Shown: piece by piece, positions 5,908-23,901 of the stretch
Numbering within the stretch: position 1 is the first letter of the stretch
Layout of the letters: each line of letters opens with the position of its first letter
Assembly (NCBI GenBank): GCA_041287245.1
Contig: JBEULP010000113.1
Span: 1 to 33,484, forward strand
Reading direction: 5' to 3'
DNA from: Infirmifilum sp.
GTDB taxonomy: Archaea > Thermoproteota > Thermoprotei > Thermofilales > Thermofilaceae
DNA length: 33,484 nt
Translations under genes and position numbers: made by a program
Notes under the pieces: generated by a model
What the model was told of the DNA's origin: nothing
Databases searched by the model: none
Seen by the model: the letters and a program-made list of their open reading frames with translations, nothing else

Positions 5908-7290
5908 ATGCCTGACATCCTGGTGCTAAACGAGAAATCCAACATAGGCATCGCTACCCTGTGGACTAAGAAAGAAGTTGTTCTCGCGGCGCTCCAGCGC
6001 ATGGGTGTAGACTCAAAGGTGAACATCATAGGTACTTTATACACGAAGTATGGGATTAACCATTTATTATATACTCTCTCGAGGCACCCCGAGATAAACA
6101 CCCTAATAATCTTCGGAGCCGATCTCTCTGGAAGCGGCTACGCACTCGTAGAGTTGTTTAAGGGGAGAGTCGTAGAGGGGCTGAGGCTCATGTGGACCCT
6201 TGAGGAACTAAAGCCCATACTTGAGACTGTGAAAGTATTGGATCTCCGCGAAGAATTCAAAAAAGGCAACTATCAATCCCTTGCAGAAACTATCGAGCAG
6301 GTATTCTCCCCTGGAACATACAGATCCATACTTAACCTCGAGTTAAGAGAAGTTGAGGCTTCAACATGGCCAGAACAGGTTGCCGGGCTTGTGGTGGTAG
6401 AAGAGGACATCCTCAGGGCGTGGGCAAAGCTACTCGACGCTGTGACACACTGGGGCTATGTGAAAGCCAGCGAGTACGGTGAAAGGCAGAAGCAGCTTCT
6501 CGGCGTAGAGGTGGTGTTGTATGCTGAGGAAGCCCTGGCGAAAGCCCACCGGCTCGAAGCCTACTTCTCCCGTGACGAGCTTCAAGCCCACGTGAAATCT
6601 CTACTTGAAGGCCTTGAGGGCGCAAGCTACTCTTATGGCGAGAGGCTCCGCAGACACAGGCTAGCTGGTGACCAAATAGAGTCCCTCGTGTCCAGACTTG
6701 CAACTTCCCCAGCAACCAGGAGGGCTATTGCCTTGACATGGGACTTCACCGTCGACCCCTCGAGCCAGGATCCCCCCTGTCTAATCCTGGTTCAAGGGGA
6801 CGTTTCAGGCAATAAGTACAACCAGCTCGCATACTTCAGGAGCCACGACGTCTACGCCGGTTGGCCGGTAAACGTTTATGGGCTTTTAAGGCTCATGGAA
6901 AACGTCTCGTCTATGCTTACCGAGAGGATGGGGCGTCAGATAAGACCCGGGTTTCTCACCGTCTTTAGCGCCTCGCTCCATCTCTACGAGCATGATTGGG
7001 CGAGGGCCCGAGAGGTCATCATGCGGGAGAAGCACAGTTTCAGATCCTTTATACCAGACCCAAAGGGAAACTTCATAATAAGGCTAAGCGAGGGTAAAAT
7101 CATCCTAGAGCATAGAGACAGTGAGGGAGTGCTCGCAGCCTCTTACTCCGGGGGAACAGCAAAGGAAATACTAGACCAGGTTAACCTCGACGCCCTTATG
7201 CCTAGGCACGCCTCCTACCTTACGCGCGAGCTTCTCAGGGCTGAGGCTGCATTAAGGGAAGGTAAAGAGTATGTACAAGACGCAGTTTAA
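5908..7290 (+). CDS. thyA: Thymidylate synthase (archaeal ThyA-type) fused to an N-terminal MtrA-like domain and a C-terminal DUF4346 domain
   Basis: TS motifs: YSYGERL, TRRA, DPPCL (catalytic Cys), FRSHD, GWPVN, SLHLYE. The N-terminus IGIATLW...IGTLYTKYGINHLLYTLSRHPEINTLIIFG resembles MtrA. The C-terminus PDPKGNFII...HASYLTRELLRAE..L..GKEYVQD is typical of DUF4346. Confidence 0.8.
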   Translation: MPDILVLNEKSNIGIATLWTKKEVVLAALQRMGVDSKVNIIGTLYTKYGINHLLYTLSRHPEINTLIIFGADLSGSGYALVELFKGRVVEGLRLMWTLEELKPILETVKVLDLREEFKKGNYQSLAETIEQVFSPGTYRSILNLELREVEASTWPEQVAGLVVVEEDILRAWAKLLDAVTHWGYVKASEYGERQKQLLGVEVVLYAEEALAKAHRLEAYFSRDELQAHVKSLLEGLEGASYSYGERLRRHRLAGDQIESLVSRLATSPATRRAIALTWDFTVDPSSQDPPCLILVQGDVSGNKYNQLAYFRSHDVYAGWPVNVYGLLRLMENVSSMLTERMGRQIRPGFLTVFSASLHLYEHDWARAREVIMREKHSFRSFIPDPKGNFIIRLSEGKIILEHRDSEGVLAASYSGGTAKEILDQVNLDALMPRHASYLTRELLRAEAALREGKEYVQDAV

Positions 7291-17205: not shown

Positions 17206-17973
17206 TTAGGGAGGGGAGGAGGTCAGAGAAGGATTTCTCCCCTTATTATTTTTCCTAAGTTCTCGGAGCAGCGGAATCTCCTCGATTTGTTTCTCTGGTA
17301 GAAGCTCCCAGATAATACCCCGGGGCCGCGGGTACTTTCTCACAGTAACGATAGCCTTGCTCGGCGTGTAGATCCGGTCTAAGGGCACGTCATGCCTCTC
17401 CATGGGAATAGACTCCACGATCTGCACGTCGTGAACAGTGGTGACGACAGGCGTGTCTTCTCCTATCACTCTCATTTCTCTCAGGATAGCGTATTCAAGG
17501 TCGCTGAACCCGCCTCCCTTGCCAACCCGCCCCCCATCCAGGCTTACAGCTACGCTACCCGAGACCTTAAGGTCTATTTGTGGGACATTGGAGTGTAAGA
17601 CTCTGCCATAGGTGAACGCCCCCTTAATAGTAGAAGCATAGCTCAAAGCATTGCCCGGTATTCTACTCGAATCGAGCAATAGGAAGCCGCTGCGTAGCCG
17701 GGGAGAAGCCATTATTAAAACCTTACCGGCCCGCAGGGCCGCCTCGCGCACGTGGCGTTGCGGCGAGTCAGGATTGCAGAAAATAACTTTGGCCTCCTGG
17801 AATATATCGTCCTCGGCAAGCCGCCTAGCCGCAAGCTCCGCGCCCCTAAAGTTAGGTATGCGCCCCTCAACGGGGAAGGGGGGTAGCGCCACCCCCTCGG
17901 AAACCATTCGAGACCAAACTTTCCTTCTCAGCTCCTCTTTAACCTTCTTTGCCTCGGTTGGAAACACATTCAC
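17206..17973 (-). CDS. 5-formyltetrahydrofolate cyclo-ligase family protein (archaeal/MTHFSD-like subfamily)
   Basis: KEELRRKVW, GRIPNFRGA, NPDSPQ, PRLR, GSVAV, RVGKGGGFSDLEY, HDVQ, HDVPLD. Confidence 0.88.
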   Translation of the reverse strand: MNVFPTEAKKVKEELRRKVWSRMVSEGVALPPFPVEGRIPNFRGAELAARRLAEDDIFQEAKVIFCNPDSPQRHVREAALRAGKVLIMASPRLRSGFLLLDSSRIPGNALSYASTIKGAFTYGRVLHSNVPQIDLKVSGSVAVSLDGGRVGKGGGFSDLEYAILREMRVIGEDTPVVTTVHDVQIVESIPMERHDVPLDRIYTPSKAIVTVRKYPRPRGIIWELLPEKQIEEIPLLRELRKNNKGRNPSLTSSPP

Positions 17974-19993: not shown

Positions 19994-21811
19994 ATGGTCG
20001 AACTGGTAGTTGAACCATACAATATCCGCGTAGAGGCAGATAGGGGAGAACGCGTATACGACGTGTTGAAACGGGCAGGTATCCCCTTCCGAACAGAATG
20101 CGGTGGCAGGGGCCTTTGTGGAAAGTGCAGGGTCATAGTTAAGGGCGGCGCCGTCTCTGCCGTAACGCCAACGGAGCTTAGACTGCTCTCGCAGGATGAG
20201 TTGGAGGCAGGGTACCGCCTCGCCTGCCAGACCTTTCTTGAGGGCTCGACGGCACTGCTTGTACCCCCGGAGTCTAGGAGCGGTGGTCTAGAGGTAGCTG
20301 CAAGTGGAGTTGCAAGATCGATGCCCTTTAAGCCTCTAGCTAAGAAGGTTTTCCTGAGGCTCCGACCCCCAAGCCTTGAAGCCCCCAGATCTGACGTTGA
20401 GGTGCTCCTGGAGGGGCTGGGCTACGGAAAGTTGAAAATAGAGTATAGCGCGCTGAAAAGTCTGGCTGCGAAGGCACGGGAGAGCAACTGGGAGGTAACG
20501 GCTACGATATGGCGTGGAGAGAGGATAGTGAACGTGGAAGCGGGGGACACCGCGAGGCATAACTATGGTGCTGCCGTGGACGTTGGTACAACAAAGATAG
20601 TGTTACACCTCGTTGACCTGGATAGGAATACCACTCTCACCAAGCTTTCAATAGAAAACCCCCAGACTATTTACGGCGACGACATAGTCTCCCGAATACA
20701 CGCTGCCTTACAGGATCCCAGGAGTCTAAGCGACATGCAGAAAATGACGGTCACGGCTATAAACAACCTGCTTAGAGCGGCTAGGGCAACAGCTGGTTTG
20801 GAGTGGGAGCACCTTACATCGGCCGTAGTAGTGGGGAACACTGTTATGCATCACGTTTTCCTAGGGCTAGACGTGAAAGGGCTAGGTTTCTCCCCTTACA
20901 TCCCGTCGGTTAGGGACTCCATGGAACTACCGGGGGGCCTACTAGGCTTGGAGGGGGTTGATTACGTTTATCTACCACCCAACATAGCCGGCTACGTCGG
21001 CGGAGACGCGGTAGCAGACATAATTGCTACGGGAATCCACTTGCTAGATAAACCTTCGCTTCTCGTAGACATTGGAACAAACACGGAGATCATTCTAAAC
21101 ACTGGGGAAAGGCTCCTCACCTGCTCAGCCCCCTCAGGACCGGCGTTCGAGGGCGGGCACATAAAACATGGAATGAAGGCGATGGTCGGAGCCATTAGAA
21201 AAGTCGTCGTTTCAGGAGTTGATAGGGTAGAATACGAGGTTATAGGAGGGGGGAAGCCCCTAGGCATAGCTGGCTCAGCCCTAATAGACGTAATCGCAGG
21301 CCTATTGGAAACAGGCGTTTTAACGCCGCGCGGCTTCTTTGACAAGAACATAGCCTCGTGGAGGATTTCCCGGTCTTCCTCGGGGGACGGTAGGGAATTT
21401 ATCCTCGTCAGGGCCGAGGAGAGTTTAACAGGTAAGGAGATAACAGTATCTGAGAAAGACGTAGGTGAGATAAGACTTGCAAAGGCGGCGATATACAGCG
21501 GGATAGCCGTACTGCTTGAACGCTCAGGTCTGAAGCCCGAGGATCTCGAGGAGGTTTTCATCGCGGGCTCCTTTGGCTACAACGTCGATGTTGTAAACGC
21601 AATGAGGATAGGGATGATTCCTAGGCTTGACCCGTCCAGGGTGAGGGCTGTCGGCAACACAGCTGTTGAGGGTGCAAGGCTCATGCTTACCTCGGAAAGC
21701 GCTGTGGAGGAGGCGGAAAGGGTAGCTAGGGAGGCTGAATACGTGGAGCTGACATTGGCCCCAGAGTTCAAGAGGATTTTTCCCCGCTCTCTAATGTTCC
21801 CCGAGGGGTGA
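19994..21811 (+). CDS. Reductive activator of corrinoid proteins (RACo; [2Fe-2S] plus ASKHA ATPase)
   Basis: CGGRGLCGKC...RLACQ ferredoxin; AVDVGTT, NPQ..YGDDIVSRI, GNTVMHH, GYVGGD, VDIGTNTE, GPAFEG, AGSFG, GNTA. Confidence 0.92.
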   Translation: MVELVVEPYNIRVEADRGERVYDVLKRAGIPFRTECGGRGLCGKCRVIVKGGAVSAVTPTELRLLSQDELEAGYRLACQTFLEGSTALLVPPESRSGGLEVAASGVARSMPFKPLAKKVFLRLRPPSLEAPRSDVEVLLEGLGYGKLKIEYSALKSLAAKARESNWEVTATIWRGERIVNVEAGDTARHNYGAAVDVGTTKIVLHLVDLDRNTTLTKLSIENPQTIYGDDIVSRIHAALQDPRSLSDMQKMTVTAINNLLRAARATAGLEWEHLTSAVVVGNTVMHHVFLGLDVKGLGFSPYIPSVRDSMELPGGLLGLEGVDYVYLPPNIAGYVGGDAVADIIATGIHLLDKPSLLVDIGTNTEIILNTGERLLTCSAPSGPAFEGGHIKHGMKAMVGAIRKVVVSGVDRVEYEVIGGGKPLGIAGSALIDVIAGLLETGVLTPRGFFDKNIASWRISRSSSGDGREFILVRAEESLTGKEITVSEKDVGEIRLAKAAIYSGIAVLLERSGLKPEDLEEVFIAGSFGYNVDVVNAMRIGMIPRLDPSRVRAVGNTAVEGARLMLTSESAVEEAERVAREAEYVELTLAPEFKRIFPRSLMFPEG

Positions 21812-21880
21812 TTGTAGCAATTACTCTTATGCATAAGCTAGTAAGGTTAAAATAATAATCGAAGCTACGGACTCGCCTAG

Positions 21881-22537
21881 GTGCTAGGATTGTCTGAAGG
21901 AGACGAGCTTGTACAAGCGATTGTAGATCTCGACGAGAACAAGGCGTTGAGGCTTGCCGATAAAATCATAGCTTCAAGCCCCGATCCCCTGAGCATCATG
22001 GAGTACCTCAGAGCCGCCGCCGACATCATAGGAAAGAAATACGAGGAGGGCGAGTTCTTTGTCGCCGACCTTGTCATGGCGGGGGAGATCCTTAAGGGGA
22101 TAAGCGAGAAGGTGAGAGCAGCCCTAAAACCCGGCGTTAAAGGTAATTTTGTAGGGCGCCTCGTCATAGGGACGGTTTACGGCGACATCCACGACATCGG
22201 TAAGAACATCGTGGTTAGCATGGCTGAGGCGGCTGGCTTCGAGGTGATCGACCTTGGAGTCGACGTCCCACCCCAGAGGTTTGTCGAGGCGATTAAAGAG
22301 CATAACCCCGACATCGTCGGGCTATCAGGTCTCTTGACTTTATCAATAGAGTCGATGAAGAGGACTGTCGACGCGATAAAAGAGGCAGGTCTCAGAGATA
22401 AGGTGAAGATAATCATAGGTGGGGGAAGGGTCGACGAGACAGCCTGCCGCTACGTGGGCGCGGACGCCTGGACCACCGATGCTGGGCGAGGGATTAAGAT
22501 AATGTTAGAGTGGGTAAAGCAAAAACAAGGGGGGTGA
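21881..22537 (+). CDS. Methyltransferase cognate corrinoid (B12-binding) protein
   Basis: N-terminal four-helix cap (GKKYEEGEFF..DL); GDIHDIGKNIV (DxHxxG), DLGVDV, GLSGLLT, IIGGG. Confidence 0.94.
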   Translation: MLGLSEGDELVQAIVDLDENKALRLADKIIASSPDPLSIMEYLRAAADIIGKKYEEGEFFVADLVMAGEILKGISEKVRAALKPGVKGNFVGRLVIGTVYGDIHDIGKNIVVSMAEAAGFEVIDLGVDVPPQRFVEAIKEHNPDIVGLSGLLTLSIESMKRTVDAIKEAGLRDKVKIIIGGGRVDETACRYVGADAWTTDAGRGIKIMLEWVKQKQGG

Positions 22538-22543
22538 GAAGCC

Positions 22544-23815
22544 TTGAGGGAGCCGCAGGAACTGCTTAAGGAGCGTAGGGAAAGAGTGGAAAAAGCTCTA
22601 ACCGGGGGAACACCGGATAGAGTCCCCTATACCGTTCTACCCGCGATAGATCTCCAGGCTGGTTATGCAGGGATGACTGTGGCGGAGCTGTGTTTCAACT
22701 GGGACAGTTGGGTAGCTAACGCGGCGAAGTGGGGGAGAGACTTTAACGTGGAGGGTATGGATCTACTCCCCTTCTTCCCCCCAGCCCTCGAGGGAATGAT
22801 TTTCGCCGTAGCCTGGGCAGATTACCCCGAGTGGATGGTTCCAACACGTTTTATAACGGGCCCCTTCCATGAAACACTAAAAGACAAGTGGACACGCTGG
22901 CCTGGAAGAGAGCTACCACAAGACTTCCACCCGCAGTTCATAGGCGGGATCTTCATGGAGCCTGAGGAGTACAGGAAGCTCGCCGAAGACCCGGTTGAGT
23001 TTATCACTGGAACCGTCTTTCCAAGAGCCATAGAGTCGCTACGAAAACCTCATTCCCCGGAGGCTGCCGCCGCCCTGATGCGGCTAGGCGTCGAGACAAA
23101 AAACTTCAATACTACGATGGCTCGTATCGGGGCTGAAGCCGCGAAGCTAGGCTTTCCATCCTTCTACATGGGGTACGGCTACGCCCCCCTGGACATTATA
23201 GGTGATTTCCTCAGGATGCCTACAGGGGTCATGCTCGACCTGCGGAGGCGTCCCGACGAGGTTCTCCAGGCGCTTGAAGCTCTGACGCCTCTGGTGAACA
23301 AGGCAATTAAGAACTCGACGATTCCACTCGAGCTATCCGAGAAGCTTTTCGGAACCAGGGTTGTCCAGGTTTTCTGGCCTCTACACCTGAATGAAATGCT
23401 CCCGCCCAAGCTCTTCGAGGAGTTCTACTGGCCCAGCCTGAAGGAAACTATTCTCTACGCTATCGAGCTTGGCTATGTCCCATGGATATTCTTCGAGGGC
23501 GACTTTACAAGATTTCTCAGCTATCTCCTCGAGCTCCCAAAGGGTAAGGTGTTCGCGTACTTCGAGAAAGCAGACCTTAGAAGAGCTCGGGAGGTCCTCG
23601 GGGATCACGTTGGCATAGGAGGGGGGATACCGGTCTCCTTGCTCATGCACGGCGAGCGTGAAAAAGTCTACGAGGAGTCATGTAGGCTTCTCAATGACCT
23701 GAAGGAGCCCGGGGGCTTCATCTTCTATGGCTCAGGGGTCTCCCCGGGAGCCGCCACGAAGATAGAGAACATATGGGCACAGATAGACGCAGTTAACAAG
23801 TGCGGCCGTTACTAG
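22544..23815 (+). CDS. Uroporphyrinogen-decarboxylase-fold corrinoid methyltransferase (O-demethylase MT1-like)
   Basis: ERVEKALTGGTPDRVP, FMEPEEY, APLDIIGDFLR, DLRRRP, PLH..MLPPKLFEEFYWPSLK, FFEGD, FEKADL, GGIP, GGFIF. It lies 6 nt downstream of the corrinoid protein gene with a GGGGTGA SD. Confidence 0.8.
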   Translation: MREPQELLKERRERVEKALTGGTPDRVPYTVLPAIDLQAGYAGMTVAELCFNWDSWVANAAKWGRDFNVEGMDLLPFFPPALEGMIFAVAWADYPEWMVPTRFITGPFHETLKDKWTRWPGRELPQDFHPQFIGGIFMEPEEYRKLAEDPVEFITGTVFPRAIESLRKPHSPEAAAALMRLGVETKNFNTTMARIGAEAAKLGFPSFYMGYGYAPLDIIGDFLRMPTGVMLDLRRRPDEVLQALEALTPLVNKAIKNSTIPLELSEKLFGTRVVQVFWPLHLNEMLPPKLFEEFYWPSLKETILYAIELGYVPWIFFEGDFTRFLSYLLELPKGKVFAYFEKADLRRAREVLGDHVGIGGGIPVSLLMHGEREKVYEESCRLLNDLKEPGGFIFYGSGVSPGAATKIENIWAQIDAVNKCGRY

Positions 23816-23901
23816 CTTTTAAACATGTTTTTCTCATAGAGCCGCAGAGAATTCAAGCGATACCTTTAAGGCTGGTGTTAGAGAACCCGACATAAGGGAA
23901 T

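Follow-up and report, generated by a model that had tools for sequence, protein, structure and literature searches.

A zinc-free MtoB-type demethylase module and a stand-alone MetE-like barrel as a candidate folate-free route from scavenged methyl groups to methionine in Infirmifilum

We describe a three-gene corrinoid methyltransferase locus on a 33,484-nucleotide contig of Infirmifilum sp. (order Thermofilales, family Thermofilaceae; contig JBEULP010000113.1 of assembly GCA_041287245.1) and propose, with a probability of about 0.7, that together with a core MetE-like methionine synthase encoded elsewhere in the genome it scavenges methyl groups into methionine without folate. The window, meaning the whole stretch of DNA analysed, is the entire contig C25 of the source genome (G000), a metagenome-assembled genome (MAG) of 1.81 Mb in 119 contigs that is 99.99% complete with 5.05% contamination. 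The locus consists of three open reading frames (ORFs) on the same strand, with intergenic gaps of 69 and then 6 nucleotides and an even guanine-cytosine content throughout:

19994..21811, forward strand: RACo-type ATP-dependent corrinoid activase (MtoD/AcsV-like) of 605 amino acids with [2Fe-2S] and ASKHA domains (Pfam, NCBIfam, synteny)
21881..22537, forward strand: stand-alone corrinoid protein (CP) of 218 amino acids with a cap and a Rossmann domain and the motif D102-x-H104-x-x-G107 (Pfam, motif, tree)
22544..23815, forward strand: MtoB-family zinc-free UroD-barrel methyltransferase I (MT1) of 423 amino acids

In the proposed relay, RACo would use ATP and an electron to reduce CP from the Co(II) to the Co(I) state, and MT1 would take a methyl group off an O-methylated substrate, with a methoxylated aromatic as the likeliest, and place it on the cobalt of the adjacent CP; both steps are established in the homologous Mto and Cdm systems and may be expected here by analogy. 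A core synthase encoded on contig C29 would then pass the methyl group from CP to zinc-activated homocysteine, giving methionine and returning Co(I). S-adenosylhomocysteine (SAH) hydrolase would supply homocysteine and close an S-adenosylmethionine (SAM) cycle that would run without a folate or pterin carrier and without energy conservation. We consider the transfer from CP to the synthase quite probable, with homocysteine as the presumed acceptor; use of methylcobalamin by core synthases in vitro is established in homologues and may extend to this protein.

An earlier note made from the sequence alone had described three co-oriented adjacent genes with intact [2Fe-2S]/ASKHA, DxHxxG and UroD-barrel motifs, and the ORFs, Pfam matches and motifs bear this out. 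RACo has the Fer2 domain followed by the RACo linker, middle and C-terminal domains (PF00111/PF17650/PF17651/PF14574; C-terminal domain E 9e-80), its [2Fe-2S] cysteines are C36/C42/C45/C78, and its ASKHA motifs read DVGTT196 and DIGTNTE359; the NCBIfam AcsV model gives 415 bits, under the cut-off of 800. It is present in one copy in G000 and was detected in 35 of the 41 Thermofilales genomes that we surveyed, 23 of which belong to this family and 8 to this genus. CP, with B12-binding_2 and B12-binding domains and DIHDIG at 102, is the sole corrinoid protein of the genome, and in a tree it clusters with CPs that adjoin MtoB-like genes in G040, G039 and an Ignisphaera locus (support 100/99).

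MT1 is the only URO-D-family gene found in G000 (Pfam E 6e-13). It shares 43% identity with Archaeoglobus fulgidus MtoB over 419 amino acids (E 2e-113) and 42% with Methermicoccus shengliensis MtoB over 410, full-length homology above the MtoB threshold of at least 35% identity used in Welte 2021. A search with a nine-sequence sub-alignment from the MT1 family retrieves named MtoB proteins, and the closest named relatives come from an Infirmifilum sp. (82%) and a Thermofilum sp. (60%), which places the host in the Thermofilaceae. In a tree of 56 rows (51 family members and 5 outgroups hand-picked from about 330 matches, built by FastTree alone with an unreliable root, CdmB and MtvB not included), MT1 falls within the MtoB family, in a Thermoproteota clade with proteins of Ignisphaera, Thermosphaera and Bathyarchaeia. 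No HxC motif occurs anywhere in the protein; when it is aligned by HHalign to eight MtaA-like HxC proteins, FFEGD falls on LHICGD and GSG on the AGC of the distal cysteine. MT1 is without the HxC...C zinc ligands of MtaA/MtbA or Mlp, as the reading of WIFFEGD at the expected place had indicated.

The sole PDB sequence match of MT1 is CdmB, which serves as MT1 for chloromethane in Acetobacterium dehalogenans (full length, E 2e-58), and a profile of the 110-sequence MT1 family likewise scores CdmB (5e-117) far above UroD (3e-5) and MtaA (4e-4); CdmB was not among the matches listed in the fold comparison. Residues Q131, H281 and E318 are conserved in 110, 110 and 109 of the 110 family members, respectively, and are the same in MtoB, whereas CdmB carries H, W and Q at these places. 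In the predicted structure H281 and E318 come after barrel strands, which suggests an active-site role for them, and the difference between Q131/H281/E318 and H/W/Q would set the substrate. Because MT1 is close to MtoB, our best guess for its substrate is an aryl methyl ether, at a little better than even odds; some other O-methyl compound is unlikely, and a methyl halide or S-methyl compound somewhat more so. This refines the earlier note, by which substrate and acceptor could not be read from the sequence: the substrate can be narrowed towards aryl methyl ethers as probable candidates.

The canonical methyl acceptors were not found. Family searches of G000 came back empty for Pterin_bind, MtrH (MtoA), the MetH/BHMT homocysteine domain, the MetE N-terminal domain PF08267, a second URO-D/MtaA gene, MetF, the Mer family, Fhs and McrA, each of these searches giving matches in control genomes, and the ACS/CdhD proteins of G010 used as tblastn queries had no match in it. 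The genome accordingly has the MtoC-type corrinoid protein and MtoD-type activase of an Mto system and neither MtoA (MtrH-like) nor a pterin-binding second methyltransferase (MT2); of the methyl-oxidation branch and the Wood-Ljungdahl pathway, Mer/MetF, Fhs and ACS were not found, while Mch, Ftr and Fwd were not searched. The earlier description of MtoD-MtoC-MtoB without MtoA is therefore valid genome-wide, and it was also correct that the window, scanned with Pfam and NCBIfam over its 30 ORFs, has no Wood-Ljungdahl or methanogenesis gene. A weak serine hydroxymethyltransferase (SHMT) candidate is a DegT aminotransferase, and weak profile matches on C19, C68 and C55 correspond to an FGGY kinase or to frames without annotation. 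As MetF, Mer, Fhs and SHMT were not found, the relay is the only route to a new methyl group that we could identify in G000. Across the order MtrH occurs in 7 of 41 genomes and in none of the 23 of this family, and Pterin_bind in a single genome, G025 of this family (a 546-amino-acid protein). SAH hydrolase, located on C49 in G000, is present in all 41.

The outlet suggested in the earlier note, a methylcorrinoid-dependent core methionine synthase, is present: a weak PF01717 match in G000 proved to be a stand-alone ORF of 317 amino acids at C29:260094-261044, tied to the locus by co-occurrence, gene order elsewhere and a complex model. All 87 aligned homologues have H196, C198, E221 and C284, and 85, 84 and 84 of them share S9, Q38 and D155, respectively. 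The family profile matches the C-terminal barrel of MetE (4e-17), while a PDB search with the sequence alone returned nothing meaningful; the predicted structure (mean predicted local distance difference test, pLDDT, 97.6) has MetE at the top of its Foldseek ranking, with MtaA chains also among the matches. It has the architecture of a core synthase, one catalytic barrel that carries the residues for zinc and homocysteine, at 23% identity to a split-MetE catalytic subunit and far under every NCBIfam methionine synthase cut-off (best member E 1e-36). Scores are 60 bits against a cut-off of 258 for PRK00957, which we take to be the MesA model, with no McrA in G000, and 31 against 387 for PRK06052, presumably the MesC model. 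MesA members share about 40% identity with METE_METTM and have methanogen hosts. Separation from MesB/MesC is by model score and by host genes, the corrinoid iron-sulfur protein (CoFeSP; AcsC/AcsD) giving no tblastn match with the G010 proteins, rather than by direct identity. The conserved residues coincide with the positions that Price 2021 (PMC7857596) lists for zinc and homocysteine in MetE, with the glutamine of the MesA/MesC type. No folate-binding partner was detected, PF08267 being absent from G000 and the N-subunit of G017 finding no match in G000 or in any of 80 metagenome loci, although a split-MetE N-subunit can be hard to detect according to the same paper. The C29 protein is likely the methyl acceptor of CP and, judged from its sequence, a putative methylcobalamin:homocysteine methyltransferase; the range of its family outside these archaea is undersampled here.

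The distribution of the synthase is consistent with such a role. An intact copy occurs in 28 of the 41 genomes, with a broken copy in G023, against 31 genomes with CP and 35 with RACo. All 28 carry CP and RACo together with one or more MtmB, MttB or URO-D genes (not all URO-D matches are demonstrated methyltransferases), and 21 of them are without MtrH. CP is absent from 10 of the 13 genomes lacking an intact synthase, the exceptions being G024, G007 and G009, of which the latter two have CP-like proteins without DxHxxG. When the count is restricted to 27 high-quality relatives, 22 have the synthase and CP occurs in only one of the other five, G024. True split MetE is found in G015, G017 and G024, all three negative for the C29-type synthase, and MetF in G015 and G017 only (2 of 41), both with split MetE and with neither CP nor RACo. 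In G023, which is 90% complete, the synthase gene is broken by 9 stops (G023:C43:8328-9033) and no CP, RACo, MtmB, MttB or URO-D match was found, which is a joint loss of the system.

Gene order elsewhere also links the synthase to corrinoid genes. It adjoins RACo in G006, G016 and G028, the last with CP and MtmB within about 6 kb as well. A metagenome scan confirmed 360 synthase loci, and among the best 80, some of which may represent the same organisms as the surveyed genomes, 25 have RACo, CP, MtoB-like, MtmB, MttB or MtrH within 6 kb; counted by cluster, the linkage holds for 19 of 56 at 90% identity and 7 of 19 at 50%, against a rough chance level of 4%. Locus L285 has four co-oriented genes in the order synthase, RACo, CP (65% to the window CP) and MtoB-like (42%), L274 has synthase, RACo, CP and MttB, also co-oriented, and L266 has synthase, CP and MttB. 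In these three loci the synthase occupies the place of the MT2 gene in Mto and Cdm operons.

A modelled complex of CP with the synthase supports binding. It scored 0.64 (runs 0.64, 0.63 and 0.65), with the best of three controls at 0.00, by a measure whose mark is passed by 116 of 157 solved pairs and 2 of 215 mismatched pairs. The runs share at least 93% of contacts, and partner pLDDT is at least 93. The predicted interface involves CP residues 57-66 and the His loop 101-106, and synthase residues 160-169, 200-203 and 288, beside C198 and C284.

Several observations weigh against the proposed relay. The synthase gene of G000 lies on a different contig from CP and RACo, between genes that we take to be MobB-like and SfsA-like; only 3 of the 28 synthase genomes have RACo next to it, G000 and the other 24 not, and 55 of the 80 metagenome loci have no corrinoid gene nearby. 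Seven synthase-positive genomes also have MtrH, and G024 (93% complete) has CP, RACo, 11 URO-D genes and split MetE with no match to the synthase, which implies that CP can have another outlet. Since related genomes do not count as independent cases, and completeness is below 90% in 8 of the 13 genomes negative for the synthase, the co-occurrence is a pattern and not a statistical test. The MT1 clade is separate from the characterised MtoB clade (in the FastTree phylogeny without CdmB and MtvB), CdmB is 31% identical to MtoB and has a different substrate, which limits the guess for MT1, and no major facilitator superfamily (MFS) importer adjoins the three genes, unlike in Mto operons. CobS was not found in G000, and its one FecCD/BtuCD-type ATP-binding cassette (ABC) importer makes cobamide import no more than plausible. 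The complex score, for which the alignments were made in this analysis, may mirror likeness to solved corrinoid-protein complexes.

It is also conceivable, if improbable, that the same relay operates and the MetE-fold protein methylates another thiol (sulfide, coenzyme M (CoM) or cysteine), in which case the pathway would unblock O-methylated sugars or aromatics for catabolism and dump the methyl group. MetE-fold and MtaA zinc enzymes do share a fold, as the MtaA chains among the Foldseek matches reflect, many genomes of the order have a catabolic look with 6-28 URO-D genes per CP, and the synthase scores far under the methionine synthase cut-offs; yet the homocysteine amino- and carboxyl-binding S, Q and D are kept in 84-85 of 87 homologues, the distribution is complementary to split MetE plus MetF, and no further methionine synthase was found in G000. 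We give still less credence to a conventional Mto system in split form, with a pterin MT2 and a methyl-oxidation branch that were unassembled or too diverged to be detected. The 119 contigs of the MAG, the MtrH of seven genomes in the order and the pterin-linked ThyA-like and 5-formyl-tetrahydrofolate cyclo-ligase-like genes of the window would allow for it, but within the family MtrH is lacking from all 23 genomes and Pterin_bind occurs only in G025. The single-contig relative G040, moreover, repeats the three-gene arrangement at the equivalent position, and searches of it for MtrH, Pterin_bind and MetF were empty. A hidden canonical MT2 was rejected on these grounds and on the empty G000 searches, and the canonical MT2 and methyl-oxidation branch that the earlier note had named as telling against its reading were not found.

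Marginally less credible again is a CdmB-like methyl halide methyltransferase that scavenges or detoxifies volcanic chloromethane, with either outlet. CdmB, likewise zinc-free, is the only PDB sequence match of MT1 and dominates the family profile search, but MT1 is nearer MtoB (43% identity) and has its Q131/H281/E318 in place of H/W/Q, G000 has no pterin-binding MT2 of the CdmA type, and published members of the CdmB clade belong to Bacillota and Asgardarchaeota. The reading of the UroD-fold protein as genuine HemE or as an MT2 of the MtaA type, by which the module would be no demethylase, we regard as barely tenable: HemE was ruled out by the absence of RQAGR from the translation together with the poor UroD profile score, and MtaA by the missing HxC and its own score. 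Grouping with HemE or CoM methyltransferases, which had been set as grounds for refutation, did not occur.

The module is better viewed as a resident gene and a cassette than as an indivisible unit. The genes are adjacent in G000, as the term three-component module had implied, but G035 and G037 have Dph6-RACo-amidohydrolase with nothing between, the gap in which CP-MT1 sits in G000 and G040, and G039 carries CP-MT1 away from RACo. Three of the eight genus members have a close MT1, and relatives have CP-MtmB (MtmB in 7 of 7) and CP-MttB (MttB in 6 of 7) pairs, the CP tree grouping CPs by MT1 type. RACo and the synthase are thus resident genes held in common, and what moves is CP-MT1, a cassette as exchangeable as CP-MtmB and CP-MttB. 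Two further features fit CP-MT1 as a separate unit:

21847..21854, forward strand: TATA-like AT-rich box in the 69-nucleotide gap, about 27 nucleotides upstream of the CP start, by resemblance to consensus alone
23816..23835, forward strand: T-rich tract behind the MT1 stop, a possible archaeal terminator

The box, read against what we take to be the archaeal TATA motif, suggests a promoter for CP-MT1 of its own. Both amine cassettes are missing from G000. Assembly gaps were rejected as the cause, since the genes on either side of CP-MtmB in G035/G040 are adjacent mid-contig in G000 (C69:24697, 24551), as are two orthologues of genes that flank the CP-MttB site (C29:286626, 286789). The genome is left with a single copy each of activase, CP, MT1 and synthase.

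The neighbours of the locus are housekeeping genes (SurE, HIT, Dph6, amidohydrolase, radical SAM and RadA by Pfam/NCBIfam). Elsewhere in the window, at 5908-7290 and 17206-17973, are a ThyA-like protein fused to PterinBD-DUF4346 and the 5-formyl-tetrahydrofolate cyclo-ligase-like gene; a paralogue of the latter is on C29, while SHMT, Fhs and Pterin_bind were not found genome-wide. RACo residues 424-428 read GIAGS, and the RACo proteins of G024, G002 and G001 have GICG at the same place. In these same genomes MtaA-like proteins with HxC and a distal cysteine adjoin RACo (L184, L185, L187), a possible second, thiol-directed outlet in non-methanogens. CP and RACo lie beside or near NrdD, the anaerobic ribonucleotide reductase, often with its activase, in genera g2, g3 and g9 (L135, L136, L137, L141, L142, L144-L146). 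CP homologues without DxHxxG stand beside a URO-D gene at L153:642-1271, L152:1374-2003 and L143:5815-6486, two of them with an MFS/sugar transporter. Outside this genus, many genomes of the order (G013, G002, G019, G012 and others) hold the 6-28 URO-D-family genes, mostly with a single CP, possibly a large set of demethylases, and two Ignisphaera MAG loci (L030:1492-5491, L032:5488-9532) have three tandem MtoB-like paralogues and an MFS transporter, with no CP in the retrieved DNA. The synthase family is found beside MtrH at L302:141-9076, L308:3363-6966 and L298:720-2709, with CP in L302 and L308 and with Mch and an F420-ligase-like gene in L302, and may elsewhere be fed from methyl-pterin. 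At L320:763-4385 (G000:C29:347262-350884) an FmdE-like gene accompanies the FecCD/BtuCD-type importer, a candidate for cobamide or metal uptake.

Each part of the system is known, and what is new is its proposed pterin-free, MT1-fed form and its cassette logic. The Mto O-demethylase MtoABCD of M. shengliensis and A. fulgidus (PMC8630106, PMC8359953) shares the MtoB-family MT1 (42-43% identity), stand-alone CP and RACo, whereas the window system is without MtoA/MtrH, the tetrahydromethanopterin oxidation branch and an adjacent MFS importer, and its outlet is likely homocysteine (anabolic) rather than pterin (catabolic). The Cdm system of A. dehalogenans (PMC13222342) has in common the zinc-free extended UroD barrel, neighbouring MT1 and CP and a shared activase, but CdmA hands the methyl group to tetrahydrofolate (THF), and CdmB, without Q131/H281/E318, does not use methoxy-aromatics. 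MesA/MesB/MesC (Price 2021, PMC7857596; Deobald 2020, PMC7005905) share the single MetE barrel, the H-C-E-C zinc site, the lack of a folate domain and a predicted corrinoid-protein donor, and the S/Q/D homocysteine residues of the C29 synthase are as in MesA/MesC. Here, by contrast, the host belongs neither to the methanogens nor to the Wood-Ljungdahl organisms, and in place of MtrA or CoFeSP the donor would be a CP of the MtmC/MtoC type that receives its methyl groups from substrate-specific MT1s. MesA and MesB were assayed only with free methylcobalamin, their protein donors being predictions; Price 2021 predicts MtrA or CoFeSP, only speculates on other corrinoid proteins for Methanosarcina MesC paralogues, and reports no synthase besides split MetE in Thermoprotei.

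Two bacterial parallels are more distant. The MtgBCDE glycine-betaine demethylase/split MetH hub of Ruegeria pomeroyi (PMC12478193) also places an MT1 and a homocysteine methyltransferase on one CP with a RamA-type activase. That system has a MetH-type PF02574 homocysteine module, requires the pterin module MtgD and belongs to aerobic bacteria, whereas a MetE-fold acceptor, no pterin module and MtoB/MtmB/MttB inputs are found here. Type 1 mlp clusters (Kountz and Balskus, PMC10418091) combine CP, activase and UroD-fold methyltransferases with no THF methylase nearby and a proposed methionine salvage; their enzymes, of which each cluster has two or more, are MtaA-like S/Se methyltransferases that share >25% identity with CoM methyltransferases, in contrast to the one zinc-free MtoB-type enzyme here. 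In the literature searched, with most subscription papers outside its coverage, no description was found of a core MetE as the MT2 of MtoB, MtmB or MttB systems. The Thermofilum pendens genome paper (Anderson 2008) reportedly mentions methylamine-methyltransferase-like genes and a MetE-like gene.

More broadly, we lean modestly towards a picture in which the MT2 of stand-alone CPs in Thermofilales and in related archaea of hot springs is a core methionine synthase of a fifth family, with one activase and one synthase serving interchangeable CP-MtmB, CP-MttB and CP-MtoB two-gene inputs in a pterin-free methyl cycle that depends wholly on scavenged N- and O-methyl groups. G000 would have lost the amine cassettes and kept only the O-demethylase one, as a minimal four-protein path from lignin-type methoxy groups to SAM, and its CP would be the first protein identifiable as the donor of a core MetE under physiological conditions. 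On the question of what supplies core methionine synthases with methyl groups in the cell, G000, with one each of activase, CP, MT1 and synthase, all four soluble and of thermophile origin, offers a testable case. If true, the relay would also explain the pyrrolysine-free MttB-like gene of Thermofilum, noted without a function in PMC2933860. In general, the presence of mtoB, mtmB or mttB in an archaeal MAG does not have to signify energy metabolism by methylotrophy.

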